A stretch of DNA of 64,000 nucleotides from Syntrophales bacterium (lineage in GTDB: Bacteria > Desulfobacterota > Syntrophia > Syntrophales > PHBD01), in assembly GCA_963668175.1 (NCBI GenBank), contig OY764159.1:3968001-4032000 (forward strand). Direction: 5' to 3'. The position numbers were made by a program, and so were the translations under genes. Shown one piece after another: positions 48,039-64,000 of the stretch (position 1 is the stretch's first letter; each line of letters opens with the position of its first letter). The notes under the pieces were generated by a model. The model worked only from the letters and a program-made list of their open reading frames with translations. It was not told the DNA's origin and did not search any database.

Positions 48039-48142
48039 GAGACGATAAGATTCTTTTTCAGTCATTGATCTGGAAAACGACGAACCGCATTACACAATAG
48101 TCTTGTCAAAGGTCCATGCCGGACCTCCTGCGGGAAGGACAT

Positions 48143-49465
48143 ATGAATTTGAAGACCAACGACACGCATCGCACAACGTCTCTGAGAAGATTCTTGCCGC
48201 TTATTTTATGCTTTGCCGCGGGCCTGTGTGTGCTCATGGAACCGGGCAAGTGCTGGCCCCTGGACGCCAAAGAAATCATCGTCATTGCCAACCGGAACGT
48301 TCCGGACAGCAAAGCCCTCGCCTTCTACTACATGACCCGTCGCGGCATCCCCGCCGAAAACCTTCTTGTCCTTGCTCTGACGGACGAAGAGCATTGCTCC
48401 CGGGAAGAATACAATCAAGAGGCCGTCATTCCCGTGCGCAGGTTTCTCCAGGCAAAAGACCCCGAAAACCGGAGATTTCGCTGCATCGTCACCATGCACG
48501 GCGTTCCGCTCGTCGTGAACGGTTCCGGCCTGAACGTCAAGGATACAGCGAAAATTGCCGCCCTGAGGGATAGGATTAAGAATATACGGTCGGAACTGGC
48601 GAAGCAGTCCTTGAGCGAAAAAGAGAAGGATAAGGCCTATAAAGAAAAGATCGAGCCCCTGGAGCGGCAAGTCACAGCCGTCAGCAAAGCGGACAGCAGC
48701 GCCTCGTTCGATTCGGAGATAGCACTGGTTCGTGAGGCCGACTATCCCCTTGCCGGTTGGGTTCCCAATCCTTACTATCTGGGCTACCGGGGAAAATCGA
48801 TTAAGAACATGCCGTCCAAGGCCTTTATGATCGCGCGCCTGGACGGCCCCTCGAAACAGATCGTCACCCGGATCATCGACGACAGTCTTGCCGCCGAAGC
48901 CGGGGGATTGCGCGGCACAGCCTATTTCGACGCCCGCTGGCCCGACCCGGGGAAGAAGCAGTTGACCGGATATGCCTTCTACGACCGCTCCCTTCATTTG
49001 GCGGCGAAGCAGATCAGGGATAACGCCGTCATGCCCGTCGTGTTGGATGAAAAGGAACGGCTTTTTCAGCCGGGTGAGGCGCCCAATGCAGCCCTCTACT
49101 GCGGTTGGTACAGCCTAGCGAAATATGTCGATGCCTTCACCTGGGTGCCTGGTGCCGTTGGGTACCATATAGCGAGCGAGGAATGCGAGACGCTGAGAAA
49201 ACCCGGAAGCCGGGTATGGTGCAAGGTCATGCTCGAAAAGGGCGTCGCCGCCACGATCGGTCCCGTCAGCGAACCCTATGTCCAGGCTTTCCCGGTACCC
49301 GAAGTTTTTTTCACGTTCCTGATCAGCGGCCGCCTGACCCTGGCGGAATGTTACGCCCTCAGCAACCCCTTTCTGTCCTGGAAGATGGTCCTCATCGGCG
49401 ACCCGCTGTACCGGCCCTTCAAATACCGGGTGAACGCCGAGATGCCCGGACCGCACCGCCCATGA
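48143..49465 (+). CDS. TIGR03790-family exported protein
   Basis: Signal peptide, LAFYYMTRRGIP, ARLDGP, GWYS, GPVSEPY and IGDPLYRPF. Alternative start 48116. Confidence 0.78.
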   Translation: MNLKTNDTHRTTSLRRFLPLILCFAAGLCVLMEPGKCWPLDAKEIIVIANRNVPDSKALAFYYMTRRGIPAENLLVLALTDEEHCSREEYNQEAVIPVRRFLQAKDPENRRFRCIVTMHGVPLVVNGSGLNVKDTAKIAALRDRIKNIRSELAKQSLSEKEKDKAYKEKIEPLERQVTAVSKADSSASFDSEIALVREADYPLAGWVPNPYYLGYRGKSIKNMPSKAFMIARLDGPSKQIVTRIIDDSLAAEAGGLRGTAYFDARWPDPGKKQLTGYAFYDRSLHLAAKQIRDNAVMPVVLDEKERLFQPGEAPNAALYCGWYSLAKYVDAFTWVPGAVGYHIASEECETLRKPGSRVWCKVMLEKGVAATIGPVSEPYVQAFPVPEVFFTFLISGRLTLAECYALSNPFLSWKMVLIGDPLYRPFKYRVNAEMPGPHRP

Positions 49466-49576: not shown

Positions 49577-50206
49577 CTAACGGAAGCAGGTCGGAATATC
49601 GTCCAGCGGCAAGAAGGCACAGGCCGTATAACGGCCGTCATGGCTTAAGCTCATGTCAAAGGGCGCACGATCCCCTCGAATCAGGACCCGGGGGACAGAA
49701 GCATATCCTGCGATGCCGATATCGTTCCCAGGCAACCCCAGATGACGGGACAGGAAAGCGATCCCGGCTTCTCTTACCAGAGCCGATTCGTCGGCGTTTG
49801 CATCGTTCCACCGGCAGACATCGGAAAGGATCGCATTGAGATCATCGTCCGAACCAGTGCAGGCCAGGCCATGCACATAATCGCTGTCTGAAAAGATACG
49901 AACATGAACGGCACCGACAGGCGTTTCCACCCTCCCGCGGACCGCAGTATCCCCATCGCTGCACCTCAATGTTACTTCGTAGCTGCGCGGTATCGAACAG
50001 ACTGGCGGCGCCAGTTTCGAGATCGCTTTGTATGCCGATTCCTTGGCTGCCCAGAGGGACCATAGAGCCCGGTCCGCCTCGGCGGAGTCAAGGATCATAC
50101 GCTGTTCAGCGGGTGTAAAGACGCGATTGACGAAGCGCCGATCCCTGCTCTTCCCCCTGTTTTCGGGATCGGTCAAATCCACCACATCGTTGCCGACGAA
50201 AGGCAA
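49577..50206 (-). CDS. 4'-phosphopantetheinyl transferase
   Basis: VGNDVVD, WAAKESAYKA and SLSHDG. TTG start at 50206 with GGAGGAGG upstream. Confidence 0.9.
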   Translation of the reverse strand: MPFVGNDVVDLTDPENRGKSRDRRFVNRVFTPAEQRMILDSAEADRALWSLWAAKESAYKAISKLAPPVCSIPRSYEVTLRCSDGDTAVRGRVETPVGAVHVRIFSDSDYVHGLACTGSDDDLNAILSDVCRWNDANADESALVREAGIAFLSRHLGLPGNDIGIAGYASVPRVLIRGDRAPFDMSLSHDGRYTACAFLPLDDIPTCFR

Positions 50207-50942
50207 AATAGGCCTCCTCCATGCGCGCCAGTTGCCGGATGATCTGTGCGGCGTAATGCCTCTGAGCGCGAAGCCCCGATTTCTCCGGCCGTTCCAGGTC
50301 CAACGTCTCGACATATACGGTGAAACGTTCGTCTCTCCGGGGAATCGTCCCCCAGGTTTCCTGGCCGTCGCCGCGGAGATAGACACACAGAACGCGGCAG
50401 TCTCCGCACGATTCCAGGAACCGGCCGGCGCCATAGGAAACGTTGTCGACGTCCACGCGACCGGTTCGCGAGCGGCCGCCCTCGGGAAATATCAGGAGGC
50501 TTTGTTTCTCCCCCAGAAGATACCGGCAGCGCGCCATCACGTCCTTCATCTCTTCGCTGTCGCCGCCCCGGTGAACGGGAACGCACTTGGCGAGATAACA
50601 GAGAGCGGTCAGGATAAAGCTTTTCTGGAAGTTGTCCCGTTCGGGCAGATTCCAGGGCAGGCACCGAAAATCGAACAAGTGCCGCTTCAGAGAGAACATA
50701 GCGTAGATGATAATGGCCGAATCCACCATGGTCAAATGATTGGCGCAAATCAGCCAGGGGCCGTCGTGGCCAGCCGTTTTGACGCGGCATTCCTCCCGGA
50801 TGCGGCGCAAATCCCTGATGCGGTAACCCCTCAGCCTGAGAAAGGCGAAATAGGCAGGGGCCAGAAGAAAGACGAACATCCCGCCCAGGAAGTACTGCCA
50901 CTTTAGGCTTGTCTTGAAGGAAATCTTCCTCATGACGCTCAA
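50106..50942 (-). CDS. PlsC-like lysophospholipid acyltransferase
   Basis: NHLTMVD (HX4D), FPEGGRS and an N-terminal TM. Confidence 0.88.
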   Translation of the reverse strand: MSVMRKISFKTSLKWQYFLGGMFVFLLAPAYFAFLRLRGYRIRDLRRIREECRVKTAGHDGPWLICANHLTMVDSAIIIYAMFSLKRHLFDFRCLPWNLPERDNFQKSFILTALCYLAKCVPVHRGGDSEEMKDVMARCRYLLGEKQSLLIFPEGGRSRTGRVDVDNVSYGAGRFLESCGDCRVLCVYLRGDGQETWGTIPRRDERFTVYVETLDLERPEKSGLRAQRHYAAQIIRQLARMEEAYFAFRRQRCGGFDRSRKQGEEQGSALRQSRLYTR

Positions 50943-51187
50943 TGCAGCTTCTTCTTAACCAGGGCAATGGCATCGCCGATGGTCCGGATCTTATCGGCCT
51001 CGTCGTCGTCGATCGTTACGCCGAAGACGTCCTCGCAGCGGATGATGACATCCACGAGCCTGGCCGAATTGACCTTCAGGTCCTTGAGGATGTGGGTCTC
51101 CGCGGTCGCCTTGTCCAGAAGGGCGACATCCTTCGTGTAGTTCTTCAAAATTCCCGTGATTTCCGTAAAAATCTGCTGTTCATCCAT
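50939..51187 (-). CDS. Acyl carrier protein (atypical DLKVNSARLVD motif)
   Basis: 82 aa with ACP pattern EDVFGVTIDD..A.KI.TIGD; Ser retained at the start of helix II. Confidence 0.9.
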   Translation of the reverse strand: MDEQQIFTEITGILKNYTKDVALLDKATAETHILKDLKVNSARLVDVIIRCEDVFGVTIDDDEADKIRTIGDAIALVKKKLH

Positions 51188-51205
51188 AACTTATGATCCT
51201 CCTTG

Positions 51206-52483
51206 CTATTCCTTCCATTTTTTAAATATGAGACAACTGTTCACGTCGCCAAAACCGAAGCCGGCCTTGGCGATGACGTTTAATTCGGGATAATCCAGGC
51301 ATGTCCTGGGAATCCGGTCCGTATAGGCCTCGATGTCCGGGTGGATGTCTTCGCAGTTCACCGACGGGTGAAGAAAACCCTTATAGAGCTGCAGGACAAC
51401 GGCGACGCACTCGATGGCGCCGGTCGCACCGAGGCAGTGCCCAATGAGCGACTTCGTCGCATTGATATAGGGAAATCTCTCCGGTCCCCGACCCAGGGCC
51501 TCCGACCAGTTTTTCACTTCGATGGGATCGGCATAGGTTGCCGTAAGGTGGCCGTTGATCGCATCGATGGCCTCCGGTTCGATACCCGCCTCTTGAACGG
51601 CGTTTCTGATGCAGCGTCCGACGCCCTCGGGATTCGGCGCCGTCATGGACCCTCCTTGCCGGTGCCCTCCGCAGTTGACTGCGCCGCTGAGAATCTCGGC
51701 ATATATCCGTGCCCCGCGGGCCAAAGCCGTCTCCAGCTCTTCCAGGACCAGGACAGCCCCGCCGGCACCCGGCACGAAGCCGCAGGCGCTGGCGCTCATC
51801 GGTCGCGACGCCGCCTCCGGATGTTCGTTGAACTTGCGGCAAATGACGCGCATGGCATCGAAACCGGACCAGATATAAGGTGACGCACCTTCCGATCCGC
51901 CGGCCAGCATCCTTTTAGCCAGTCCCATTCGTATCCGCAGGAAGGCGTCGATGATCGCCTCGTTACCCGTGCTGCATGCGGCCGAATTGGACGTAACCTG
52001 GTTGCCCAGGGCCAGTAAACCCGCGATGCGGGCACTGGTCCCGCTGTTCATCACCTGTTCGACGATCCGGCTCCCCAGGCGGCGGACTTTTCCCTCGTTG
52101 ACCATGGGCACGACGGACTTGGCGATCGTATCCATTCCGCCTATGCCGGAGCCGATAATCGCCCCGGTGTCCCAATCAACCCTGTCGTCGTCGGCTTCCG
52201 GCACTTCAAACCCTGCATCCGTCCAGGCATCGACGGCCGACACGGAGGCGTAGCCGATATTGTCGTTGATCGACATCAGTTTCTCGTGATCGAAATAGCG
52301 TTTCCGGATTGCATCGAAATCCTGCGGTACGCCGCCTACCTGACAGGCAAAGCTCAAATCCCTGAGTTCAGGGAGAAAGCGGATGCCCGACCGGCCTTCC
52401 CGCAACGCCGCTTCAAAGGCTTCCAGGCCGTGGCCATTCGGCGCGGCCACTCCCATACCCGTTATCACAACCCTATTTTTCAT
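51206..52483 (-). CDS. fabF: Beta-ketoacyl-ACP synthase (FabF/FabB family)
   Basis: RVVITGMG and Cys-His-His triad (AACSTG, NGHLTAT, GHCLGA). Start at MKNRV. Confidence 0.9.
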   Translation of the reverse strand: MKNRVVITGMGVAAPNGHGLEAFEAALREGRSGIRFLPELRDLSFACQVGGVPQDFDAIRKRYFDHEKLMSINDNIGYASVSAVDAWTDAGFEVPEADDDRVDWDTGAIIGSGIGGMDTIAKSVVPMVNEGKVRRLGSRIVEQVMNSGTSARIAGLLALGNQVTSNSAACSTGNEAIIDAFLRIRMGLAKRMLAGGSEGASPYIWSGFDAMRVICRKFNEHPEAASRPMSASACGFVPGAGGAVLVLEELETALARGARIYAEILSGAVNCGGHRQGGSMTAPNPEGVGRCIRNAVQEAGIEPEAIDAINGHLTATYADPIEVKNWSEALGRGPERFPYINATKSLIGHCLGATGAIECVAVVLQLYKGFLHPSVNCEDIHPDIEAYTDRIPRTCLDYPELNVIAKAGFGFGDVNSCLIFKKWKE

Positions 52484-52952
52484 CGAGAACAACCCCCATA
52501 CCGGCCAGCACGGCGCTGCACACGGCTTCTCCGTTTTCCTTTTCCATGCCGACCCTGACTCTGATTGCATTGTTGCGGAAATAGACCTTCTCGCCGCGTA
52601 TTACCACGCGCTCGCCCGGTTCGACCATCCCGGTGAACTCGACACCGTCCGCAAAGGTAAATAGCGTGACCATGCTATCTGTCTTCCCGGGAGCCATCTT
52701 GCCCTGCACAATGCCAAGATAGATACCGAAGGCCACAACACCCGTCTGGGCCATCGTTTCCACGAGAATGACCCCCGGCGTCACGGGACGGCCCGGAAAA
52801 TGGCCCCGGTAAAAATATTCGTCCTCGTGAAAGCGATAGGAACCGACGATATGGTTCTCGTCAATCTCCAGGATATCGTCGATGAAGCGAAACGGCGCCT
52901 GCTGGGGAACCGCCGCCAGAATCCGTTTCTGCAAAAGGGGATCAACCTCCAT
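52473..52952 (-). CDS. fabZ: FabZ-type 3-hydroxyacyl-ACP dehydratase
   Basis: PFRFID and GHFPGRPVTPGVILVETMAQ (His/Glu dyad). Confidence 0.88.
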   Translation of the reverse strand: MEVDPLLQKRILAAVPQQAPFRFIDDILEIDENHIVGSYRFHEDEYFYRGHFPGRPVTPGVILVETMAQTGVVAFGIYLGIVQGKMAPGKTDSMVTLFTFADGVEFTGMVEPGERVVIRGEKVYFRNNAIRVRVGMEKENGEAVCSAVLAGMGVVLDEK

Positions 52953-53673
52953 AGAGCCCTCCATTGACGTGGATGACGCTGCCCGTGATGTAGGACCCTT
53001 TGGAGGCCAGAAAAGCAACAACCTCTGCCACCTCCGAAGCCCGTCCTATCCTGGCGAGCGGTATTTTTTCCAGAATCCGCTCCTTGATCTCGTCCGGCAA
53101 CCCGGCCGTCATTTCCGTATCGATAAAACCCGGCGCCACGGAGTTGACCAGGATATTACGTCCCTTCATCTCCTGGGCCAAAGACTTCGAGAAGGCGTCA
53201 AGGGCCGCTTTTTCCATGGTATAGGGAATCTGGCCGCCGTTCCCCGTGTGTCCTACCACGCTGGAGATATTAACGATCCGGCCGCTGTCCTGGCGGAGCA
53301 TAAAGAGCCTGATGACCCTCTTGGTCAGGTACCAGACGCCTCGCATAACCGATCTCTGTTCGTCGAACTGCTCCATCTTCATGCTGTTGATGTCGGCGTT
53401 GATCGACATCCCGGCGTTGTTGACGAGCACATCCACACGCCCGGCCTTGTCCCTGATCTCGCCGATCATGGCATCAACCTCTTCCGGCCGGGAAAGATCC
53501 GCCCGCACCAGAAAACCGTCGCCTATATCCGCCAACACGGCGGCCGCATCCCGTTCGCTGCTGCGGTAATGGATGCCCAGCCGGAATCCCTGTTCGGCAA
53601 GGGCATAGCAGCAGGCGGCACCGATATTACGGCCGCCGCCCGTCACCACAGCCACTTTTTTTTCATTCGTCAT
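52942..53673 (-). CDS. fabG: 3-oxoacyl-ACP reductase (SDR)
   Basis: TGGGRNIG, NNAG, YTMEK (YxxxK) and PGFIDTEMT. Confidence 0.88.
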   Translation of the reverse strand: MTNEKKVAVVTGGGRNIGAACCYALAEQGFRLGIHYRSSERDAAAVLADIGDGFLVRADLSRPEEVDAMIGEIRDKAGRVDVLVNNAGMSINADINSMKMEQFDEQRSVMRGVWYLTKRVIRLFMLRQDSGRIVNISSVVGHTGNGGQIPYTMEKAALDAFSKSLAQEMKGRNILVNSVAPGFIDTEMTAGLPDEIKERILEKIPLARIGRASEVAEVVAFLASKGSYITGSVIHVNGGLYGG

Positions 53674-54262
53674 TTTTCACCATGATTCCGCCGGTGGAAT
53701 ATCCGGACCGCATGGGATAATCCCGGTAGGCGATGTCCTTGAATATCCCCGTTCGTGCTTCTTGAACGGTCATGACCAGTTCGTCGTCGACGAAGACCCG
53801 GCCATCCCCGATGGCAATGCTCGCCCCCGACTCCTTCAAATGCGAATAGCGTCTCACATCCACTTCATAGCGGACGCACCGGTTATAGGGCCGGATCTGT
53901 CCGTTGAACGACACCTCCCCGCAGCCGAGGGCCCTTCCCGACCCCAGGGCACCGCTCCAGGTGCAGAAGTAGCCGAGGAGCTGCCATATGGCATCCACAC
54001 AGAGGCATCCCGGCTGAACGGGATCGCCCAGCATATGGCACTGGAAATACCAGGCATCCAGCCGGACGTCCTGCTCCGCAACGACGGACCCGCGCCGGCC
54101 TTCGCTTTTTATGGAGAGGATGCGGTCCACCATCAGAAACGGCGGTGCCGGCAGCCTGCCGTCGAAATCCGCGGGAGGGTCCTCGATCAATCTTCCATAG
54201 GCAAAGGCCAGCAATTCCTCGAAACGGAATTCATGGCGCTGTCGATACTCGTTATAGGTCAT
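53663..54262 (-). CDS. fabA: FabA-type dehydratase/trans-2,cis-3 isomerase
   Basis: LPAPPFLMVDRI, CHMLGDPVQPGCLCVDAIWQ (His/Asp dyad) and GRALG. Confidence 0.9.
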   Translation of the reverse strand: MTYNEYRQRHEFRFEELLAFAYGRLIEDPPADFDGRLPAPPFLMVDRILSIKSEGRRGSVVAEQDVRLDAWYFQCHMLGDPVQPGCLCVDAIWQLLGYFCTWSGALGSGRALGCGEVSFNGQIRPYNRCVRYEVDVRRYSHLKESGASIAIGDGRVFVDDELVMTVQEARTGIFKDIAYRDYPMRSGYSTGGIMVKNDE

Positions 54263-54305
54263 CCCGTCATCTTCTTCGATTCAAGTACCGTAAAAACGCT
54301 TCCAT

Positions 54306-55292
54306 CTATGCTTCAACGGACAGGAGCATATGGCCCCAGGTCAATCCCGCCCCAACCAGGGCGATTGCCGCCTGGTCGCCGGGACGGAGTTCATCCCAGT
54401 GCTGGCTCAAGACGGAAGGCCCTCCGGCGCAGCCCTGGTTTCCGTAAAATTCGACATTATGCCAGTGGTCCCCTTCGGCGACGCCGCACCGTTCGCAGAC
54501 GGTCTGCAACATTCCCAGATTGGCCTGATGGCCGATGAATATCAGGCAGGCACCGTTGTTCCTTGCTTCGGATTGCAGAGTCCGCAGGGAATCGGTTGTC
54601 CGCCGGATCGCAAAACCCTGAACGGCGCTTCCATCCTGCCAGAAATACCCGTTCCGCGGCACCCTGGCCTTGTCCCACGACGACGGTTTGGAGCCGCATT
54701 CGCAGTGGGTGACGATTTTCCCGGCCGGGACCGACGCCGACACGACGCAGGCGGCACTGCCATCGCCAAAGAGGACGGCGTTGGCCCGGTCGGAATAATC
54801 GATCGAACGGGTCACATTGTCCGGCTGGACAAGGAGGATGAACGGCGGCAAGGCCTCCGGCCTCATCCTGGACAGGAAATTCATCTGGACGCCGAAAGTG
54901 GAGCAGGCCGAATTCAGATCGAAGCAGGGGGCTTCGATGCCCAGTTCGGAGGCAATCGTGGCGGCCTCGGCGGGCGTTAGTGTATCGGGGATGGAACTGC
55001 CGGATATGACGAGGCCGATATCGCAAGACGAAAGGCCGGCACGCTCAAGGGCCATCCGGGCGGCGGCGGCGCCCGTCTTGGCGTTGCATGTCATACTGGC
55101 CTCATAGGCCTCCCTCGGATCCCTGTTCTTCGTTTGTTTGATATAATCGAGGGGAAGGACGGAATGACGGGTGTGAATCCCGACCCGTTCCAGAATCCAT
55201 TCTTCGCTCGTACCGATGTCCAGCTCTTCCAGGAACCGGTTTGTGATGATGTTGTCGGGATGGTAATGGCCGATGCCGTGCAGATATAACAT
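54306..55292 (-). CDS. fabH: Ketoacyl-ACP synthase III
   Basis: Cys-His-Asn triad (SACSTF, HQAN, YGN), LFGDG and GAGLTWG. Confidence 0.9.
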   Translation of the reverse strand: MLYLHGIGHYHPDNIITNRFLEELDIGTSEEWILERVGIHTRHSVLPLDYIKQTKNRDPREAYEASMTCNAKTGAAAARMALERAGLSSCDIGLVISGSSIPDTLTPAEAATIASELGIEAPCFDLNSACSTFGVQMNFLSRMRPEALPPFILLVQPDNVTRSIDYSDRANAVLFGDGSAACVVSASVPAGKIVTHCECGSKPSSWDKARVPRNGYFWQDGSAVQGFAIRRTTDSLRTLQSEARNNGACLIFIGHQANLGMLQTVCERCGVAEGDHWHNVEFYGNQGCAGGPSVLSQHWDELRPGDQAAIALVGAGLTWGHMLLSVEA

Positions 55293-55296
55293 ACGC

Positions 55297-56496
55297 TTAT
55301 AAGATCTCCCGTCCGATAATCATGTTTTGAACCTCCCTCACACCCTCATAAATATCGATGATATGCGCATCCCGAACCAGTTTCGAAATCTCGTACTCGG
55401 CCGTAAAGCCGTACCCCCCATGCAGGTGCAGACCCTCGTTGGCGCAGTAAAGGGCGGCCTCCGCCGCCGTATTTTTAGCCAGCGATGCATAGAGCCCCCG
55501 GTCCTCCGCCTTTTCCTGAACCTTGAAGGCCGCCTTCATCAGGGCGAGTTCGGCCAGTTCGACCTTTTTCCACAGGGATACGATCGTCTCCCTGGCGACG
55601 GGCAGGTCGGCGATCCTCTGGCCGAATTGCTGGCGCATCTTCGTGTACTCGACCGTCACATCGAGGGCGCGCCTCGCAAGGCCGACGCCGATGGCCGCCA
55701 CCATCGGCCTGGCGTAATCCAGGACGTCGACGATGTATTTGAAGCCCTGCCTTCGATCGCCGATGATCTGATCGTCTTCCAGGACGACATCCTCGAAGCT
55801 GACGCTCGCCGTGTTCGACATGCGCTGGCCCAGTTTATCCTCAGGCTTGCCGATGACGACCCTGCCGCCTCCCGCAAGGACAACTTCGCGCCCCCTGCCA
55901 GTCTCCACACCCGCATCGCCGGGCAGCAGCGGGGGAACCGGAACGACGACACAGGCCATGAAGTTCCCCGTCGGCTTGCCGACTTTGCAGAAAACGGTGA
56001 ACTGGGAGGCGAAGGACGCATTCGTGATGAAGCATTTGGACCCGTTCAGGACATATTTGCCGTCATTCCGTTTGCCGATGAAGGTCGTCATCGCCGAATT
56101 GTCCGATCCCGCATTGGGTTCCGTGAGACAGAAGGATGCCAGCAGCGGTTTCTCCGTGAACGGCCTGAGAAAGGCCTCTTTCTGGGACTGTGTACCCTGC
56201 TGGGCTATGGCCGCATTGGCCAGGTCGTTGCACATGGCGGAGGTGGAAATTCCCGTATCGCCGTAAGAAAGCTCCCGGATGATCAATGCCGACGATACGA
56301 CATCGACCTCGTATCCCTTGACGGATTCGGGAATGCATAGGTTTAGAATCCCGAGTTCCCATATCTTCGTAATGATATCCCAGGGAAATCGATGCTCCCC
56401 ATCCCATACCAGGACGTTGGGCGTGATTTCGCTCCGGACGAACCTGACGACGGTGTCGATATACATTTGCTGCTGCTCTGTTAGCGTGAAATCCAC
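55297..56496 (-). CDS. Acyl-CoA/acyl-ACP dehydrogenase family flavoprotein
   Basis: LTEPNAGSD, LNGSKCFITN, RQQFG, HGGYG and IYEG. Confidence 0.92.
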   Translation of the reverse strand: MDFTLTEQQQMYIDTVVRFVRSEITPNVLVWDGEHRFPWDIITKIWELGILNLCIPESVKGYEVDVVSSALIIRELSYGDTGISTSAMCNDLANAAIAQQGTQSQKEAFLRPFTEKPLLASFCLTEPNAGSDNSAMTTFIGKRNDGKYVLNGSKCFITNASFASQFTVFCKVGKPTGNFMACVVVPVPPLLPGDAGVETGRGREVVLAGGGRVVIGKPEDKLGQRMSNTASVSFEDVVLEDDQIIGDRRQGFKYIVDVLDYARPMVAAIGVGLARRALDVTVEYTKMRQQFGQRIADLPVARETIVSLWKKVELAELALMKAAFKVQEKAEDRGLYASLAKNTAAEAALYCANEGLHLHGGYGFTAEYEISKLVRDAHIIDIYEGVREVQNMIIGREIL

Positions 56497-56549
56497 GATC
56501 GATCCTTATAATAATGTTCGGCAAGTGCCGTTTAACACATCCGGCAATC

Positions 56550-57497
56550 TCAGTTGGAACCGGCAAATATCCTCATCGCCGCCGACAGGGTCGTCACGGA
56601 GAGGCAGTCGACCTGCATGGTTTTGAAGAATTCCCGAAGGGGCCGGCCCGGTCCTATTTCATAGATCGCCGCCGAATGTTTCGAGAGTGCCGCCATGTTG
56701 CTCCTCCACTGCACAGGATTGCTGATCTGGAAGACGAGATCCCGGATCACTTCATCGACCAGATCGCTGTGGAACCCCCCCGTATAATTGGACGTTACAC
56801 GGGTTGTCCTTCGCATATCGAGCGCCGAGGCCATTTCCTGAAGCGCATCTTCGAACGGCCTTTCGATTCTTCTCATGAACCGGCTGTGAAACGGCGCGCT
56901 CACATTGAGAGGTACAAAGTGAAAATTCTGATCGTCCGGCATCGTCCCCATGACCCGGAGGGCGGCAGCCGACATGGAATCGGCCGACCCGCTGATCACA
57001 ACCTGCTGAATGGAATTGACGTTGGCGACATCGACGGGAAGATCGTCGAGGGCCTTTTGAATGGCTCCGGCGTCGAGACGGTCGGAGATGACTGCCGACA
57101 TGCCGCCGATCCCTATGGGCGCCGCATCCTGCATCAATCTTCCCCGAAGGTGGACGATCTTCAGCGCATCGGCGAAAGGCAGGGCCCCGGCGGCAACCAG
57201 CGCGGTGAATTCGCCGAGGCTGTGACCGCCGAAAATATCCGGTTCGAATCCGAAAAGACTCTTTAATCCCCGGAGCATGGCGATCTCCGTCGTCAGAATG
57301 CACGGCTGCGTGTATTCCGTAAGGTCGAGCCTCGCATCTTCGCCGAAGCAAAGTTCCCCGACATTCCATCCCAGGGCATCGGATGCCTCTGCATATGTAT
57401 CGCGGCTTGCGACAATACGATCGTAAAAATCCTTACCCATGCCGGGTCTCTGTGACCCCTGGCCGGGAAACACGGCGGCTACTTGACGTTCTTTCAT
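56550..57497 (-). CDS. fabD: Malonyl-CoA:ACP transacylase
   Basis: FPGQGSQ, GHSLGE, RGRLM and SAPFHS. Confidence 0.94.
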   Translation of the reverse strand: MKERQVAAVFPGQGSQRPGMGKDFYDRIVASRDTYAEASDALGWNVGELCFGEDARLDLTEYTQPCILTTEIAMLRGLKSLFGFEPDIFGGHSLGEFTALVAAGALPFADALKIVHLRGRLMQDAAPIGIGGMSAVISDRLDAGAIQKALDDLPVDVANVNSIQQVVISGSADSMSAAALRVMGTMPDDQNFHFVPLNVSAPFHSRFMRRIERPFEDALQEMASALDMRRTTRVTSNYTGGFHSDLVDEVIRDLVFQISNPVQWRSNMAALSKHSAAIYEIGPGRPLREFFKTMQVDCLSVTTLSAAMRIFAGSN

Positions 57498-57962
57498 CGG
57501 TATCCCCTCCTGCCCGTTGTTTCAATCCATCCGTTATGCCGTTCGCGCATCGCGCTGCATGACGACGACGCAGAAGCACTATCCATGCCAATCGCGACCG
57601 GCGGTCACACGAACAGATTTAACTTGTCGAATATAAAAGGTTATAAATCGATTTATTCACCGGCCGTGCGGCTGGACAGGAAGGGATACGGGCCCGGTTT
57701 TTCTGCATACGCTTTTTCACAGTGCGAACGGGGCTACACAACCGGGAGCGCCCAGTAGCGGCTTCGAAAACTACGGCCGGCCTTTGCGATTCCGTTGAGA
57801 CAACCTTGATCATTGACCGCCTTGGTGATATAAGGGCTATGCAGTAAATATTCTCTTTCCTTTTCCTTAACTGGCATCCTTTGCAGTCAAATTGCATTCT
57901 TTACGCCGGACGCGCCATCAAGCCTTCCGGACGTGGTTCAGTCATCATTTTCATAATCTATT

Positions 57963-59645
57963 ATGAGGATTCGATCGATGCTTCATGAACCTACTCACCT
58001 GGAAATGAAACAGGAAATTGAAGATTTCAAAGAAGCCCTGGCGGCGCAGAAACAGATTGAAGAAGCCCTCAGGGAAAGCAAGCAGATCTACAAAATGATC
58101 TCCGAAAAATCGTTTGCCGGCATCTATGTCGTGCAGGACGGTAAATTCCGTGCCGTCAACCCCAGTGCCGCCTTCTATGCCGGATACACGATAGGGGAGT
58201 TAACCGGAATGAAATCGGACTGCATCGTCCATCCCGACGACCGTCTCCAAGTTAAGCGCGATGCCCGCGCCATGCTGCGGGGCGAACGGGTATCGCCCTA
58301 TGAATTCCGGATCATCACGAAAGACGGTCAAATACGCTGGATCATGGAAACGGTGACGTCCATATTCTTCGAAGGGCGGCCGGCCATCCTCGGCAATTCG
58401 ATGAACATCACCGATCGCAAGCAGATCGAAGAACGATTGAAGGAGTCCGAAAACCTTTACCGGGCCATCTTCGAGACGACACCCGCGGCGACCATCATCG
58501 TCGAAGAAGATACGACCATCTCCCTCGTCAATTCGCAATTCGAAAAGCTTTCCGGCTACCGCAAAGAGGAGTGGGAAGGTAAGAAGTCGTGGACCGAGTT
58601 CGCAGCACCCAAAGATGTCGAACGCATGATGCATTATCATCACCGGCGGCGCACGAGCCCCGGCCTGGTACCCCGGAATTACGAATTCAGCCTCATCGAC
58701 AGTCTCGGCCGCACGCGGGAAGTGACACTCATCGTCGATATGATTCCGGGGACGAAGAAGAGCGTCGCCTCGCTGCTCGATATCACGGAACGCAAGAGGT
58801 CCGAGGAAAAGATGCTGGAGAGCGAGAACCTGTACCGGACCATTTTCGAAACCACGGGCACGGCAACCATCATCGTGGAAGAAGACATGACGGTATCCCT
58901 CGTCAATACGGAGTTCGAGAAGATGTCCGGGTCACCCAAATCCTGCTGGGAGGGAAAGAGAAGCTGGACGGAGTTCGCATCGAAAAAGGACGTTACCAGA
59001 ATGAAGAAGTACCACTTCGCCCGGAGGGTGGACCCCAATCTGGCGCCCCGAAACTATGAATTCGGCTTCATCGACCGGCAGAAAAACCTCAAGGACACCA
59101 TCATCACCATTTCAATGATCCCCGGAACCAAGAAGAGCGTGGCTTCCTTTGTCGATATCACCGAACGGAAACGGGCCGAAAAGGAATTGAAAAAAAGGGA
59201 GGCGGAACTGCAGATCAATTCCGCCAACCTGCAGGAGGTCAATACGGCCCTCCGGATTCTTCTGAAGCAAAGGGAAGAGGACAAGAACGAATTGGAAAGC
59301 AAGGTCCTGTCGAACGTCAAGGAGCTGGTTCTGCCCTATATCGATAAGATCAAGAAGCTTCGCATGGACAAGAGGGGACTGGCCTATATCGAAAGCCTCG
59401 AATCGAACCTGAAGGACATCATCTCGCCGTTTTCCTACAAGCTGTCCTCCCAATATCTCAATCTGACGCCGAAGGAACTGCAAGTGGCCAACCTGATCCG
59501 GGAGGGAAAAACGAGCAAGGAGATTGCCGAAATGACCAATGTCTCCCGCAGCGCCATCGATATCCACCGTTACCGCATCCGGAACAAGCTGGGACTGAAC
59601 AACAAGAAAGCGAATCTCCGTTCATACCTGTCATCTTTCACATAA
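57963..59645 (+). CDS. Triple-PAS LuxR-family transcriptional regulator
   Basis: Three PAS/PAC repeats ending in (N/D)IT(D/E)RK, and C-terminal LTPKELQVA..GKTSKEIA..HRYRIRNKLG. Start may be 57978. Confidence 0.92.
   Translation: MRIRSMLHEPTHLEMKQEIEDFKEALAAQKQIEEALRESKQIYKMISEKSFAGIYVVQDGKFRAVNPSAAFYAGYTIGELTGMKSDCIVHPDDRLQVKRDARAMLRGERVSPYEFRIITKDGQIRWIMETVTSIFFEGRPAILGNSMNITDRKQIEERLKESENLYRAIFETTPAATIIVEEDTTISLVNSQFEKLSGYRKEEWEGKKSWTEFAAPKDVERMMHYHHRRRTSPGLVPRNYEFSLIDSLGRTREVTLIVDMIPGTKKSVASLLDITERKRSEEKMLESENLYRTIFETTGTATIIVEEDMTVSLVNTEFEKMSGSPKSCWEGKRSWTEFASKKDVTRMKKYHFARRVDPNLAPRNYEFGFIDRQKNLKDTIITISMIPGTKKSVASFVDITERKRAEKELKKREAELQINSANLQEVNTALRILLKQREEDKNELESKVLSNVKELVLPYIDKIKKLRMDKRGLAYIESLESNLKDIISPFSYKLSSQYLNLTPKELQVANLIREGKTSKEIAEMTNVSRSAIDIHRYRIRNKLGLNNKKANLRSYLSSFT
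58443..59192 (+). repeat. Internal tandem duplication of a 375-nt PAS unit
   Basis: Both units read ESENLYRxIFETT...PRNYEF...MIPGTKKSVAS..DITERKR; starts at 58443 and 58818. Confidence 0.85.
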
Positions 59646-60196
59646 TATTACATTTTATGTATAATATTTATCGAGTTATTTTAATATTGCATTTTATTCC
59701 CTCTTTTCCTAAATCTTACATACTTCTCAATCAACACTTTCTACGCCGGCTGCGACTGAACAAGATACAGTCTGTCGGGAATTCAGTCGTATTCATATTC
59801 ACATAGATGATTCACCCATTCATACGGTTCGCTTCGTAGTGCCTGATTGCGTGCGAAGGTGAAAGTACCTCAAGCAGTCTTAAGAACAATATATTCTCCA
59901 CTTAACGGACATGTGCACGGTCATGGGGGATGCCTGAGGATGATCGGCGAAGTCGGCAAAGCGCCGACCGTCGTACCTTTATCCCGCTGAGCGGCTATCA
60001 AATTCATGGTTGGCAGGGCGTTATTCGCCGCGCTGTATCTTCTTCTGTCTCTTGGAAGAATTACGGAAGAAGGATTGTAGCGTGCGGAAGCAAGATGGTG
60101 TATATGAAGCCGATGTTCCAACCATGCAGTTAAAAACCGATCATCAGTGGCACGAACGGCCCAGGCCGTAAAAAAATACAATGAAGGAGATTTATC

Positions 60197-61051
60197 ATGG
60201 AAATCAAGAAGGTCTGCGTATTGGGAGCAGGATTGATGGGAAACGGCATAGCGCAGGTGTGCGCCCAGGCGGGCTATACGGTGACGCTTCGTGACATCGA
60301 GCAGAGGTTCATCGACGGCGGCATGAAGACGATCACGAAGAACCTGAGCAAGGACGTGGAGAAGGGAAAACGGAGCCAGGAGGAGATGGACGCGATCCTC
60401 GGCCGGATCAAGCCGACGCTGGATATGAAGGAAGCGGCGACGGGGGCGGACATCGTCGTGGAAGTCGTGATCGAAGTGATGGACGTAAAGAAGCAGGTTT
60501 ACACGGAACTGGAAAAGATCGTTCCGGACCACTGTCTCTACTTCACGAACACGTCGGGACTGAGCATTACGGAGATGGCGGCGATCACGAAACGGCCGGA
60601 CCGTTTCATCGGGACGCACTTCTTCAACCCGGTGCCGGTGATGCGCCTGCTTGAGATCATCCGGGGTTACGAGACGTCGGAGGAGACGCTGGAGACGGCG
60701 AAAGCCTGGGGGAAGAAGATCGGCAAGGAAGTGATCGTGGTGAAAGAGGCGCCGGCGTTTGCGGTGAACCGGATCCTGTGCGTGATGCTGAACGAGGCGT
60801 TCTTTGCGCTGGACGAGGGGATAGCGACGGCGGAGGATATCGACAAGGGGATGGTGCTGGGCTGCAATCATCCGATCGGCCCGCTGGCCCTGTCGGACCT
60901 GGTGGGCAACGAGACGCTCCTGCGGGTGGTGGAAGGTCTGCACCGCGAGCTGGGGGACAAGTACCGTCCGGCTCCGCTGTTGAGGAAACTGGTGAGGGCG
61001 GGCCGCTACGGCAGAAAGACGGGCAAAGGGGTTTACGAATATACGAAGTGA
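60197..61051 (+). CDS. hbd: 3-hydroxybutyryl-CoA / 3-hydroxyacyl-CoA dehydrogenase
   Basis: [23 protein letters not shown] and [10 protein letters not shown]; strong AAGGAG RBS. Confidence 0.92.
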
Positions 61052-61214
61052 TTGTTGCGGCCGCACTGGAAAAGAAACCGGGGGGAGTCCCATGCGGCAG
61101 ACGGATAAGGCAGACAAGGAAAGGAGGTGAAGACGTAGTAAGCGGGCAGCAGATTCCTATACGTGAGATCTTATCGACCAGCATTTCGTGAAGTCATCAA
61201 AAGGAGGGAACGTT

Positions 61215-62540
61215 ATGCCAGTCTTTAGCCATTACGTTAAGAACAAATTCAAGAAACCGGCACCCCTGAAGGGCGTCCGGGTTCTTGAAGTATGCACGCT
61301 CCTGTTCGGACCGTCCGGTCCGTCATTTCTGGCCGAGATGGGGGCCGAAGTGATCAAGATCGAATTGCCGCCCATGGGCGACGTAACCCGCTCCCTGAAC
61401 CCGTTCGGATGGTTCTACAAGGAGCAGTCGCCGATGTTCATGCATATCAATCCGAACAAGTATTATATGGCCCTGGATCTCCATATCGACATCGGACAGC
61501 AGATATTCAAGGAACTGGCGGCCAAATCCGACATTATCGAATTCAACTTAAGACCAGGCGTCACCCGCCGCTGGAACATCGGCTACGAACAGATCAGGGA
61601 GGTGAATCCGGGCATCATCTACATCGAAAAGAACGGTTTCGGTCAGTGGGGTCTCTACGCCGAGCAGGACCGGCCCTCAAATGACGGAGCAGCCCAGGCC
61701 CTGGCCGGATATGCGTGGATGTCGAGTTTTCCGGGCCGCCCACCGCTGAAGCAGGCCATCTGGATCTGCGATTACTACGGCGGCCTCATGGGCGAAGTAG
61801 CCGTCCTAGCCGCTTTGCACCACCGCAAAAAGACCGGCAAAGGTCAGTTCATCGAAATGTCGCAGATAGAAAACATCATGAGAACGATGGGCTGGGTATG
61901 GCCTTATCAGCAATTCACCGGCAAAGGCGTCGATCCGGTGGGGAACCGCGACATGTGCATCTGCCCGGCCGATACGTTCCTCTGCAAAGACAATCTGCTT
62001 GTTGCCCTTGCCGCCCCGGCGCCCGACGAATTCAAGGGGCTGTGCATCGCCATGGGGAAGCCCGAACTGGCTGAAGACCCCCGTTTCAAGGAACATACCG
62101 TCCGCCTGAAGGACGAAAACGCCTTGGCCATCCTTTCAATCATCGCCGACTGGGCCAGGACGAAGACCGCGGAAGAAATCGAAAATCTCGGTAAAGTAAA
62201 CTGTTTTTCCGCCACAAGGCTCCACAACGCCAAGGACATGAACACCGATCCACACCGCCGTGAGCGCGATTTCGTCAAAGAGATCGACGATCCCATGTAC
62301 GGCTGTTATATGGAGCATGAATTTCCGGTCATGATGTCGAAAACGCCGCCGAAGATCAAATGGACGGTCCGGCCGGTGGGTTTCGACAACGACTACGTCA
62401 TGGTGAAAATCCTCGGAAGAAACCAGGCCCAGATCGACGAATTATACATGCACGGCGTTCTGGGGAGATGGAAAGACCAACAGGGACGGCGGCCGCCGTC
62501 GGACTGGGACCAGCAATCCGGTCTTATCATAAGGAGGTGA
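61215..62540 (+). CDS. Family III (CaiB/BaiF) CoA-transferase, subunit with catalytic Asp
   Basis: PLKGVRVLE, GAEVIKIE, GFGQWG and ICDYYGG. Start at MPVFS with GGAGG. Confidence 0.9.
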   Translation: MPVFSHYVKNKFKKPAPLKGVRVLEVCTLLFGPSGPSFLAEMGAEVIKIELPPMGDVTRSLNPFGWFYKEQSPMFMHINPNKYYMALDLHIDIGQQIFKELAAKSDIIEFNLRPGVTRRWNIGYEQIREVNPGIIYIEKNGFGQWGLYAEQDRPSNDGAAQALAGYAWMSSFPGRPPLKQAIWICDYYGGLMGEVAVLAALHHRKKTGKGQFIEMSQIENIMRTMGWVWPYQQFTGKGVDPVGNRDMCICPADTFLCKDNLLVALAAPAPDEFKGLCIAMGKPELAEDPRFKEHTVRLKDENALAILSIIADWARTKTAEEIENLGKVNCFSATRLHNAKDMNTDPHRRERDFVKEIDDPMYGCYMEHEFPVMMSKTPPKIKWTVRPVGFDNDYVMVKILGRNQAQIDELYMHGVLGRWKDQQGRRPPSDWDQQSGLIIRR

Positions 62541-62546
62541 TTCATT

Positions 62547-63896: not shown

Positions 63897-63900
63897 GGAG

Positions 63901-63936
63901 GCCTTTCGCAGGGAAACCGGTTTACCTGCGAAGGGC
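63901..63936 (+). other. Stem-loop right after the second CoA-transferase (no U-tract)
   Basis: GCCTTTCGCAGG-GAAACCGGTTTA-CCTGCGAAGGGC. Confidence 0.6.
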
Positions 63937-64000
63937 GGCACCATAGCACCAAGTGCGGCGAAAGCGAAGAAATAAGTCCCCGGCCCGGATGATGTCCGGG

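Follow-up and report, generated by a model that had tools for sequence, protein, structure and literature searches.

How does a bacterial fatty acid synthase complete its elongation cycle when its operon holds no gene for a known enoyl reductase, and what is such an operon for? A locus of this kind lies on the minus strand of the window, the 64,000-nucleotide stretch of Syntrophales DNA analysed here. The original prediction described ten genes at 49577..57497 in the order fabD, acyl-CoA dehydrogenase (ACAD), fabH, fabA, fabG, fabZ, beta-ketoacyl-ACP synthase (KS), ACP, PlsC-like acyltransferase and 4'-phosphopantetheinyl transferase (PPTase).

Organization of the operon

All ten genes are present in the predicted order on a single strand, as established from the open reading frames and from Pfam and NCBIfam assignments that agree with those made earlier (Table 1).

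Table 1. Genes and promoter element of the operon, with window coordinates and the matches on which each assignment is based.
Feature	Position	Strand	Matches and motifs
fabD, malonyl-CoA:ACP transacylase, 315 aa	56550..57497	-	PF00698; TIGR00128 238 bits, cut-off 261
ACAD-family flavoprotein, candidate enoyl-ACP reductase, 399 aa	55297..56496	-	PF02771 + PF02770 + PF00441
fabH-like KAS III, 328 aa	54306..55292	-	PF08541 + PF08545; NF006829 179 bits, cut-off 249
fabA, 3-hydroxyacyl-ACP dehydratase/isomerase, 199 aa	53663..54262	-	NF003509 200 bits, above cut-off 124
fabG, 3-oxoacyl-ACP reductase, 243 aa	52942..53673	-	235 bits, cut-off 298; Y-x3-K (YTMEK)
fabZ-like dehydratase, ORF 182 aa	52473..53021	-	PF07977 62 bits; FabZ models 73-79 bits, cut-off 113
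beta-ketoacyl-ACP synthase I/II type, ORF 454 aa	51206..52570	-	FabF-type 295 bits, FabB-type 259 bits, both below cut-off
private ACP, 82 aa	50939..51187	-	51.5 bits, cut-off 66; DLKVNSARLVD motif
PlsC/LPLAT-family acyltransferase, 278 aa, TTG start	50106..50942	-	PF01553 48.4 bits, cut-off 23; HX4D + FPEGGRS
4'-phosphopantetheinyl transferase, ORF 285 aa	49577..50434	-	PF01648 49 bits
sigma-54-type -24/-12 promoter element TGGCATGGATAGTGCT	57575..57590	-	about 80-93 nt upstream of the fabD ATG

FabD, KAS III, KR, DH, KS I/II and ACP are encoded by separate genes with Pfam matches above the gathering scores, which is the arrangement of a type II fatty acid synthase (FAS II). FabA alone exceeds its NCBIfam equivalog cut-off, and all other members of the operon fall below theirs. 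The open reading frames of fabZ, KS and PPTase are longer than the real genes. The lengths of relatives point to 52964 or 52952 as the probable start of fabZ (about 160 aa) and to 52483 as that of KS (425 aa); the PPTase probably begins at the TTG at 50206 (209 aa), which is preceded by the Shine-Dalgarno sequence GGAGGAGG. With these revised starts, neighbouring genes are at most 53 nt apart and overlap by at most 101 nt. The acyltransferase is encoded by the TTG frame, which carries PF01553; an overlapping ATG frame at 50173-50973 has no family match.

The catalytic motifs, predicted to be intact, can be seen in the translations. Those of FabG (Y-x3-K) and the ACAD (IYEG) were confirmed by alignment, which was used for these two proteins alone; the others were read by eye. 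By this reading FabD carries GHSLG, FabH Cys/His/Asn, FabA His/Asp, FabZ His/Glu, KS Cys/His/His, the PlsC-like protein HX4D and the ACP the serine of NSA. Pfam and NCBIfam revealed no FabI, FabK, FabL or FabV gene within 49577..57497, so that the predicted lack of a known-class enoyl reductase gene in the operon is borne out.

Conservation and distribution

The operon is genuine and conserved in syntrophic Syntrophales, and the notion of an operon confined to this genome is not supported. The 63 related loci that reach from the ACAD through the PPTase all show the order ACAD-FabG-FabZ-KS-ACP-PlsC, with no non-colinear case; the ACAD served as the anchor for collecting these loci, so that its presence there is given by construction. 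Among the same complete loci, FabH is found in 53, FabD in 49 and FabA in 25. An ACAD ortholog with 69-76% identity occurs in every Syntrophales genome (14/14) and in no other genome (0/387) of a 401-genome Desulfobacterota sample, and the KS is 71-82% identical throughout the order. Among 1.84 billion representatives, the ACAD family forms one full-length cluster at 74% identity and is still isolated at 50% identity; the nearest sequences outside the cluster are one partial match at 45% and then full-length matches that are at most 39% identical. A literature search yielded no publication on this operon, in line with its proposed status as an undescribed system.

The ACAD-family protein and the enoyl reductase position

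ACADs normally oxidise acyl-CoA and pass the electrons to ETF. The N-terminal, middle and C-terminal ACAD domains all match the operon flavoprotein, and its IYEG motif, which contains the catalytic Glu, aligns with the IYEG of pig MCAD (PDB code 3mdd). The protein is closest to the MCAD, Bcd and AcrC types: the best NCBIfam match is AcrC (251 bits, cut-off 640), and the PDB matches include 5ol2 (204 bits; a Bcd deposited as 'Acyl-CoA dehydrogenase') and CarC (6fah, 167 bits). Among carrier-protein-dependent members, it matches prolyl-ACP dehydrogenase (4irn) with 133 bits, the RedW/PigA models with 162-166 bits and, weakly, MbtN with 39.5 bits. Because it carries ACAD domains only, with no SDR or NMO fold, it would represent a new class of enoyl reductase (ENR) instead of joining an existing one. 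ENRs of the ACAD type are not known, and a 2022 review of ENRs mentions acyl-CoA dehydrogenase not once. The operon contains no etf or other electron-donor gene.

Five genomes outside the Syntrophales possess the same operon without the ACAD and with an SDR of 313-349 aa in its slot. The best NCBIfam match of this slot SDR is FabL in all three proteins scanned (106-121 bits, cut-off 328), and its best PDB match is Bacillus subtilis FabL (3oic). Its Y-x6-K aligns with the Escherichia coli FabI signature, whereas the operon FabG has Y-x3-K. The slot SDR is closest to B. subtilis FabL (3oic/3oid) and shares the Y-x6-K, but it differs from the FabL type in its length, which includes an inserted stretch of about 80 aa, and in a score far below the FabL cut-off. 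It occurs in seven of the 401 genomes, in none of the 14 Syntrophales, and is absent from the genome studied here. Since the sister operons hold a Y-x6-K SDR of the ENR type in its slot, the ACAD is most likely the enoyl-ACP reductase of the operon and an unreported type of ENR, whose direction, ACP-dependence and electron donor we infer. The displacement argument sets one event, in the Syntrophales, against a few out-group lineages, and two out-group variants (L104 and L106) lack FabG, so that the role of the slot SDR in these two is not beyond doubt. A pathway without enoyl reduction, as originally envisaged, is not supported; given the slot that the ACAD occupies, the acyl chain is probably fully reduced in every cycle.

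The genome has no FabV and no FabI, and no FabL above cut-off. It contains three FabK-like genes (237-305 bits, cut-off 453), one of which lies 12 kb upstream of the operon, outside the window. FabK-like genes were found in 36 of 41 related genomes, all below the equivalog cut-off, and FabL above cut-off in none of the 41, in a census that covered FabI, FabK, FabL and FabV. FabK-like proteins could supply enoyl reduction in trans. Four operon-bearing genomes (G415, G418, G419 and G432; completeness 92% for G418 and 97% for G432) have the ACAD and no FabK-like gene, FabI or FabV at the thresholds used. SDRs outside the operon were classified individually in G415, G418 and G432, whereas G419 has 31 SDRs. 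At a threshold of E<=1e-55, none of those in G415, G418 and G432 matches FabI or FabL, and of the ten, three have no family match.

The ACAD might instead work as an oxidative acyl-ACP dehydrogenase. It would put a 2,3 double bond back into an acyl-ACP, whether completed or of intermediate length, and so feed FabA isomerisation in a FabX-like backtracking or make an MbtN-like 2-enoyl lipid tail, while a FabK-like protein reduces in trans. The family is normally oxidative, and carrier-protein-dependent members such as 4irn and, with its weak match, MbtN exist. In the window FabA is the second gene downstream of the ACAD, but 38 of the 63 complete loci have no operon FabA and still keep the ACAD. 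The FabK-like genes of the 36 genomes would fit reduction in trans, whereas the four genomes lacking FabK, FabI and FabV matches would not, and the slot of the ACAD is taken in sister operons by an SDR of the reductase type. FabX, a flavin dehydrogenase/isomerase that acts on acyl-ACP (PMC8626469), offers a precedent, and on balance we regard the oxidative role as unlikely.

Carrier protein, acyltransferase and promoter

The operon had been proposed to encode a self-contained, ACP-dependent pathway, and its own ACP, PPTase and terminal acyltransferase support this. The operon ACP scores 41-52 bits against AcpP cut-offs of 66-70 (TIGR00517 among the models); the DLKVNSARLVD motif is invariant, and helix II contains basic residues, unlike that of the canonical AcpP of the same genome. 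The operon PPTase is the second in the genome, which has AcpS at 1618 kb. PF01553 and HX4D, seen as NHLTMVD in the translation, place the acyltransferase in the PlsC/LPLAT family. Its best NCBIfam match is the acyltransferase part of Aas, acyl-ACP--phospholipid O-acyltransferase, and it reaches 29.6 bits with the PlsC model TIGR00530 (cut-off 103).

The genome has a separate canonical AcpP-FabF pair at 669-670 kb, behind yceD, and a separate canonical PlsC at 651 kb. A canonical AcpP above cut-off is present in 39 of the 41 genomes; the other two, of one genus, have no canonical AcpP match. The operon itself departs from a canonical housekeeping locus in its gene order, which is not plsX-fabH-fabD-fabG-acpP-fabF, and in an ACP below cut-off.

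A sigma-54 element with the consensus TGGCATGGATTGTGCT precedes fabD in 42 of 60 FabD-first related loci, against a chance expectation that we estimate at about 0.003 per locus. In relatives, a divergent histidine kinase and sigma-54 activator, or a lone activator, adjoins the operon; the orthologs of the kinase and the enhancer-binding protein are located at 4040818-4043750 in this genome. The GG-N10-GC arrangement of the -24/-12 element, its conservation and the cognate enhancer-binding protein predict that the operon is under sigma-54 control.

Overlap with housekeeping lipid synthesis

The operon FabZ and FabA are the only good ones in the genome, two weak hotdog proteins being the only others in the FabZ search, and the same pattern holds across the order sample, in a dehydratase search that covered FabZ and FabA. 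The genome has two FabD genes, one of them the operon fabD, and in at least nine of the 41 related genomes the only FabD match adjoins the operon. By virtue of holding the only good FabZ and FabA, the operon is partly housekeeping; the sole FabZ and FabA found, and the sole FabD in some genomes, suggest that the module joined bulk lipid synthesis in the Syntrophales. The alternative against which the original prediction was set, that this is the only FAS of the genome with a normal reductase elsewhere, is half true: the only good FabZ and FabA are here and a FabK-like gene is elsewhere.

These observations raise the question of whether the operon is a plain housekeeping FAS II in an unusual order, with redundant extra ACP, PPTase and PlsC and a FabK-like enzyme as the normal reductase. 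The sole good dehydratases and, in some genomes, the sole FabD are what such a role would require, the KS and ACAD show 70-82% identity within the order, as core functions would, and the two genomes mentioned above have no canonical AcpP match. Against this stand the canonical AcpP of the remaining 39 genomes, accompanied here by FabF, the canonical PlsC and AcpS elsewhere in the genome, the basic helix II of the private ACP, and the sigma-54 promoter with its dedicated sensor kinase and activator; moreover, four out-group genomes (G045, G117, G145 and G297) carry a canonical FabZ besides the operon. A purely housekeeping role appears improbable, somewhat more so than the oxidative one. A secondary-metabolite cluster of the type II PKS, aryl-polyene-like or polyunsaturated kind, making something other than a membrane lipid, is very improbable, for although a private ACP and PPTase, an operon without a classical ENR and weak matches to flexirubin FlxB (190 bits, cut-off 340) and cispentacin proteins recall one, 49577..57497 holds a single KS with no second KS-like gene, chain-length factor, cyclase, thioesterase or exporter, the terminal enzyme is an LPLAT, the operon occurs throughout an order, and its ENR slot is always filled by a reductase-type gene.

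Proposed pathway

We consider that the operon encodes a sigma-54-controlled second FAS II with a private carrier protein and the ACAD as its enoyl-ACP reductase, and put the probability of this reading at roughly 0.55. The PPTase would activate the private ACP, FabD would load malonate and the FabH-like enzyme would prime the chain. Elongation would proceed through KS, FabG and FabZ, and the ACAD-family flavoprotein would reduce the trans-2-enoyl-ACP. FabA may divert a cis-3 intermediate to give unsaturated chains, and the PlsC-like enzyme is expected to hand the completed chain over from the private ACP to a lyso-glycerolipid. Family membership is the basis for all of these steps; which way the ACAD reaction runs, its dependence on ACP and its source of electrons are inferred, as are the acyl acceptor and the product.

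A broader proposal, which we advance only tentatively, is that the ACAD-fold flavoprotein constitutes a new class of bacterial ENR. It would work with the housekeeping AcpP as well as with the private ACP, would be the sole ENR of some Syntrophales, and would be supplied with electrons by ETF or by carriers linked to ferredoxin instead of using NAD(P)H directly; the operon would be a lipid-remodelling module controlled by a membrane sensor and sigma-54. If so, electrons linked to ETF or ferredoxin would let energy-limited syntrophs conserve energy during lipid synthesis.

Comparison with known systems

The canonical FAS II with a FabA/FabB anaerobic branch for unsaturated fatty acids is that of E. 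coli. The operon shares its enzyme set (FabD, FabH, FabG, FabZ, FabA, KS I/II and ACP) and differs in gene order, in the basic helix II of the ACP, in its own PPTase and LPLAT, in the sigma-54 promoter and in the ACAD that replaces FabI/K/L/V. Reduction of enoyl thioesters in vivo by ACAD-type enzymes is carried out by butyryl-CoA dehydrogenase/EtfAB, acryloyl-CoA reductase AcrC and caffeyl-CoA reductase CarC. The operon ACAD has their fold and catalytic Glu; these enzymes, however, act on CoA thioesters and have etfAB adjacent, whereas the presumed substrate here is ACP-bound and the operon has no etf gene. Prolyl-ACP dehydrogenase (4irn), MbtN and PigA/RedW share the fold and accept carrier-protein-bound thioesters, but they are oxidative, belong to NRPS or siderophore pathways and have low identity to the operon ACAD. 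The rhizobial acpXL-fabZXL-fabF2XL-fabF1XL-lpxXL cluster follows the same logic: it combines a private ACP with dedicated FabZ and KS, and its terminal acyltransferase puts a special acyl chain in place. That acyltransferase is of the LpxL type and acts on lipid A, whereas the operon has a PF01553 LPLAT.

Two further systems resemble the operon in part. Enterococcus faecalis fabI-fabN-fabO, as described by Dong and Cronan (2022, PMC9671860), has a normal FabI and no private ACP, PPTase or acyltransferase, but likewise encodes a dedicated enoyl reductase beside a FabA-like dehydratase/isomerase and a FabB-like KS. Helicobacter pylori FabX (PMC8626469) has the NMO/FabK fold and a 4Fe-4S cluster and is neither an ACAD nor a reductase; as is proposed for the operon ACAD, it is a flavoenzyme that acts on acyl-ACP and stands in for a classical component of FAS II.

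Gene content of the operon

The fatty-acid synthase (FAS)/lipid set that the original prediction had read on one strand is borne out by Pfam and NCBIfam assignments: ten consecutive ORFs were called at positions 49577-57497 of the minus strand. The NCBIfam equivalog cut-off is reached by FabA alone and all other members score lower, which marks the set as divergent rather than as standard housekeeping enzymes. No FabI, FabK, FabL or FabV gene was found inside the operon.

Features of the operon and its surroundings (window positions)
Feature	Position	Strand	Assignment and remarks
fabD	within 49577-57497	minus	FabD; Pfam/NCBIfam
ACAD	55297-56496	minus	three-domain acyl-CoA dehydrogenase; Pfam/NCBIfam
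fabH		minus	FabH-like KAS III; Pfam/NCBIfam
fabA		minus	FabA; NF003509, 200 bits (cut-off 124)
fabG		minus	FabG; Pfam/NCBIfam
fabZ	probable start 52964 or 52952	minus	FabZ-like dehydratase; Pfam/NCBIfam
KS	probable start 52483	minus	beta-ketoacyl-ACP synthase, FabF/FabB type; Pfam/NCBIfam
ACP	50939-51187	minus	acyl carrier protein, 82 aa; Pfam/NCBIfam
PlsC-like	50106-50942	minus	acyltransferase, TTG-start frame; PF01553
PPTase	most likely start TTG 50206	minus	phosphopantetheinyl transferase; PF01648
ATG frame	50173-50973		overlaps the acyltransferase; no Pfam/NCBIfam family match
GG-N10-GC element	57590-57575		TGGCATGGATAGTGCT; ~80-93 nt upstream of the fabD ATG
Flanking ORF	48116-49465	plus	449 aa; no Pfam match
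Flanking ORF	59921-61117	minus	398 aa; no Pfam match
RelA/SpoT	42560-44733	minus	split over two ORFs in different frames, 238 nt overlap

The ORFs of FabZ, KS and PPTase exceed the likely genes, and the starts of the first two were placed from gene lengths in relatives. The TTG of the PPTase is preceded by GGAGGAGG. With the revised starts, neighbouring genes are separated by up to 53 nt or overlap by up to 101 nt. A long dual-coding overlap of the PlsC-like gene and the PPTase was ruled out, as protein-level conservation of the PPTase frame does not extend beyond WRxWRRxIL..GNDVVDL in the upstream direction.

Among NCBIfam models, the PlsC-like protein best matches the acyltransferase portion of Aas (acyl-ACP--phospholipid O-acyltransferase), and this points to acyl-ACP as the predicted donor and a lysolipid as the acceptor. 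A search of the ESM Atlas with this protein confirmed PF01553 clusters in Thermodesulfobacteriota and Myxococcota. The cultured relative Syntrophus gentianae has an ortholog of it.

Outside the operon, the two RelA/SpoT ORFs of the window encode 499 aa with HD, RelA_SpoT and TGS domains and 303 aa with RelA_AH_RIS and ACT domains; the arrangement could be explained by a frameshift, by a sequencing error or by a gene that is genuinely split.

Conservation and distribution

In species-representative genomes, 317 relatives were confirmed by a scan. The titles of the 80 best loci all read Syntrophaceae, Syntrophales, Smithella or something broader (e.g. Deltaproteobacteria, Pseudomonadota). Sixty-three of these 80 loci span ACAD to PPTase, and the core order ACAD-FabG-FabZ-KS-ACP-PlsC is kept in all 63, with no non-colinear case; the spanning loci were anchored on ACAD, whose presence there is by construction. 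The operon is thus conserved, and not unique to the window. FabH (53 loci), FabD (49) and FabA (25) are found in part of the spanning loci, and the exact ten-gene form of the window in 14.

Homologues of ACAD number in the hundreds at 74-91% identity and, where named, belong to Syntrophales, Syntrophaceae or Deltaproteobacteria. An ortholog (E<=1e-100) was detected in 14 of the 401 genomes of the phylum sample, namely the genome of the window (G000) and all 13 others of its order, and in none of the 387 genomes outside the order. Within 1.84 billion representatives clustered at 50% identity, the family constitutes one full-length cluster (74% identity) and fragments, followed by one partial match at 45% and by further full-length proteins that are at most 39% identical.

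An FMN-reductase-like gene lies downstream of the operon in 17 of the 80 loci, and a carboxyltransferase (HMGL-like and PYC_OADA) lies near it in 33; both were left out of the operon because neither is linked to it in G000. In Smithella-type operons the carboxyltransferase is found between fabD and ACAD (L039:8438-9907, L065:8449-9891) or downstream (L022:17008-18495), and it may supply malonyl-CoA by transcarboxylation.

The probable reductase position

Orthologs of the PlsC-like protein (42-54% identity) were identified in five genomes from other families of the phylum (G045, G117, G297, G236, G145). Their loci always contain FabZ-KS-ACP-PlsC-PPTase, with FabD, FabH, FabA and FabG being variable, and none has an ACAD. 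The position held by ACAD in Syntrophales is occupied in these out-group operons by an SDR of 313-349 aa. This protein matches PF13561 with 121-133 bits and, weakly (22-29 bits, three of four scanned), PF12241, the FabV/TER catalytic region. Its best NCBIfam model is the FabL enoyl-ACP reductase in all three proteins scanned, at 106-121 bits against a cut-off of 328, and its top PDB match is Bacillus subtilis FabL (3oic), with 2,4-dienoyl-CoA reductase in third place. The signature GYAAISAAK (Y-x6-K) aligns with Y156-x6-K163 of Escherichia coli FabI, whereas the FabG of the operon has Y-x3-K. The SDR occurs in 7 of the 401 genomes, the five named, each time at the operon, and G040 and G366; it is absent from all 14 Syntrophales genomes, and G000 has no close homologue. 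Two out-group variants without FabG (L104 and L106, the latter also without PlsC) qualify the comparison with the SDR. In L106, from G040, the PPTase domain is followed C-terminally, in the same protein, by ~570 aa without a Pfam match (L106:13994-15985).

ACAD and the SDR of enoyl-ACP reductase (ENR) type are therefore mutually exclusive at one operon position. Mainly on this ground, ACAD is most likely the enoyl-ACP reductase of the operon, and one of an unreported kind; its direction, carrier and electron donor, like the product of the operon, are what we infer. The original prediction that the operon lacks an enoyl reductase was not supported. The AlphaFold models of ACAD (mean pLDDT 70, built on a shallow alignment of 40 sequences) and of the out-group SDR (pLDDT 57, from five sequences) were too uncertain for structure searches.

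The alternative that a known ENR serves the operon was considered in a sample of 41 genomes of the order. FabK-like genes (E<=1e-40, all below the cut-off) are present in 36 of them and absent from G414, G415, G418, G419 and G432, where only PF03060 fragments of at most 33 bits were detected. All of these five have the ACAD ortholog. With E. coli FabI as the query, G414 alone yielded a true FabI (42% identity); the other matches were one at 34% in G082, generic SDRs at 23-31% and one partial match at 39%. FabV was not detected in G415, G418, G419 or G432, and FabL exceeded its cut-off in none of the 41 genomes. Four genomes of 92-99% completeness (G415, G418, G419, G432) thus carry the operon with no FabI, FabK or FabV match in a search that covered reductases of the SDR and NMO types. 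At the thresholds used, FabL is also excluded in three of them (G415, G418, G432), where the SDRs outside the operon (four, five and one, respectively) have no FabI or FabL match at E<=1e-55: seven match FabG-type or generic SDR models and three have no match at that threshold. The 31 SDRs of G419 were covered by the order-wide FabL search only.

Bacterial FAS II varies most at enoyl-ACP reduction, and the reductase is a drug target. If the assignment of ACAD is true, an ENR of the ACAD fold would be a mechanistically different class, flavin-dependent and possibly ETF-dependent, and it offers a directly testable case. The bacterial classes named in a 2022 review are FabI, FabK, FabL, FabV, FabL2, FabI2 and FabMG, all of SDR or NMO folds, and the term 'acyl-CoA dehydrogenase' does not occur there (PMC9260719). 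ACAD falls into none of the known classes, and neither the operon nor an ACAD-type ENR turned up in our literature search. Functionally the operon would resemble a type II FAS, and FabA would make it akin to the anaerobic unsaturated-fatty-acid branch; the locus does not correspond to a canonical fab locus. A close analogue is the fabI-fabN-fabO operon of Enterococcus faecalis, which pairs an ENR with FabA-like and FabB-like genes (PMC9671860). The closest analogues of ACAD itself include reductive ACADs working with ETF and carrier-protein-dependent ACADs; FabX is also among the closest analogues.

Regulation and the private carrier

The GG-N10-GC element upstream of fabD is of the sigma-54 type. 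Of 60 FabD-first loci, 42 share this element (consensus TGGCATGGATTGTGCT) no more than 350 nt upstream of fabD; among 17 ACAD-first loci it was detected in one. A loose sigma-54 pattern matches the window 57 times against 50 expected, which is not above chance, and the element is therefore to be weighed by its position and conservation. A scan for sigma-70 promoters and terminators gave nothing beyond chance. Relatives have two regulatory genes immediately upstream, one for a divergent histidine kinase (with a 7TM sensor region in L039) and one for a response regulator of the sigma-54 enhancer-binding kind; the out-group operons have a divergent sigma-54 activator. The G000 orthologs of the kinase and regulator (52% and 65% identity) are located 15 kb upstream, at genome positions 4040818-4043750. 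The intervening stretch (window 57963-64000 and on to genome position 4043750) contains a PAS-LuxR regulator, two family III CoA-transferases, a FabK-like gene, beta-oxidation genes (an ACAD other than that of the operon, an acyl-CoA ligase and a thiolase) and an EF-hand protein, and it appears to have been inserted between operon and regulators.

The ACP of the operon is 62-84% identical over 33 sequences, with DLKVNSARLVD invariant. Lys and Arg occur in its helix II, in contrast to the acidic DSLDLVELIMEMEE of the canonical AcpP of G000; such a basic helix would fit a distinct set of partners.

Housekeeping synthesis in G000 and across the order

The window corresponds to G000:C1:3968001-4032000 of a closed genome of 4.57 Mb. 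A search of sequencing runs listed none of RNA; the four DNA-type runs listed stem from a single study. A canonical AcpP-FabF pair is located behind yceD at 669-670 kb, a canonical PlsC at 651 kb (117 bits) and AcpS at 1618 kb; the operon is a second system, as AcpP, FabF and PlsC have canonical copies elsewhere. The AcpP-FabF pair is not accompanied by plsX, fabH, fabD or fabG. The whole-genome search detected neither FabV nor FabI, and no FabL over the cut-off. Of FabK-like NMO genes there are three, with scores of 237-305 bits (cut-off 453); one lies beyond the window at 4037.9 kb, 12 kb upstream of fabD. PF07977 has four matches, two inside the operon; the others are weak hotdog proteins of 38 bits (728 kb, radical-SAM/KS cluster) and 18 bits (biotin cluster), and the operon copies are the only FabZ-grade and FabA genes found. 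The proposal of a dedicated pathway stands in that the synthase is predicted to be regulated and has a private ACP, but on the dehydratase side it is partly housekeeping.

Across the 41-genome order sample, PF07977 is found in 37 genomes, and its strong matches are the FabA/FabZ pair of this operon, ~1.2 kb apart; hardly any genome has a second FabZ-grade match. Canonical AcpP exceeds its cut-off in 39 of the 41 genomes, always apart from the operon ACP, which scores 38-43 bits. Canonical FabD exceeds its cut-off in 25, and in at least nine (G082, G180, G210, G401, G402, G415, G416, G418, G419) the sole FabD match is beside the operon. Judged from these gene counts, the operon is an ancestrally separate system on which Syntrophales would now rely for dehydratase and often for transacylase activity. 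An order of environmentally important syntrophs, with almost no FabZ outside the operon, would then conduct bulk fatty-acid synthesis via a sigma-54-regulated accessory operon, which bears on the reading of lipid biomarkers and on metabolic models of methanogenic communities.

G000 has two FabD genes, the second of which lies in a fabH-ACP-phaC-fabG-fabD cluster at 907-911 kb (L003:8947-13780). There, fabH, an 82-aa ACP-like ORF, a class I PHA-synthase-like gene (526 bits), fabG and a canonical-scoring fabD share one strand; a PHA synthase between FAS genes is unusual. The region at 724-740 kb (L006) combines two radical SAM enzymes (one with DUF4070), a deacetylase-methyltransferase fusion, KS genes, ACPs, a hotdog protein, a PF01553 acyltransferase and a DUF4139/4140 protein, and is another predicted ACP-dependent lipid pathway. 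At 4430-4437 kb (L007:1953-8976), a biotin cluster with FAS-like genes comprises bioA, hotdog, SDR, ACP, nitroreductase, KS, an unknown gene, bioF and bioD, and resembles the Desulfovibrio-type pimeloyl-ACP route. Three further KS-like genes and an ACP are located at 4454-4466 kb.
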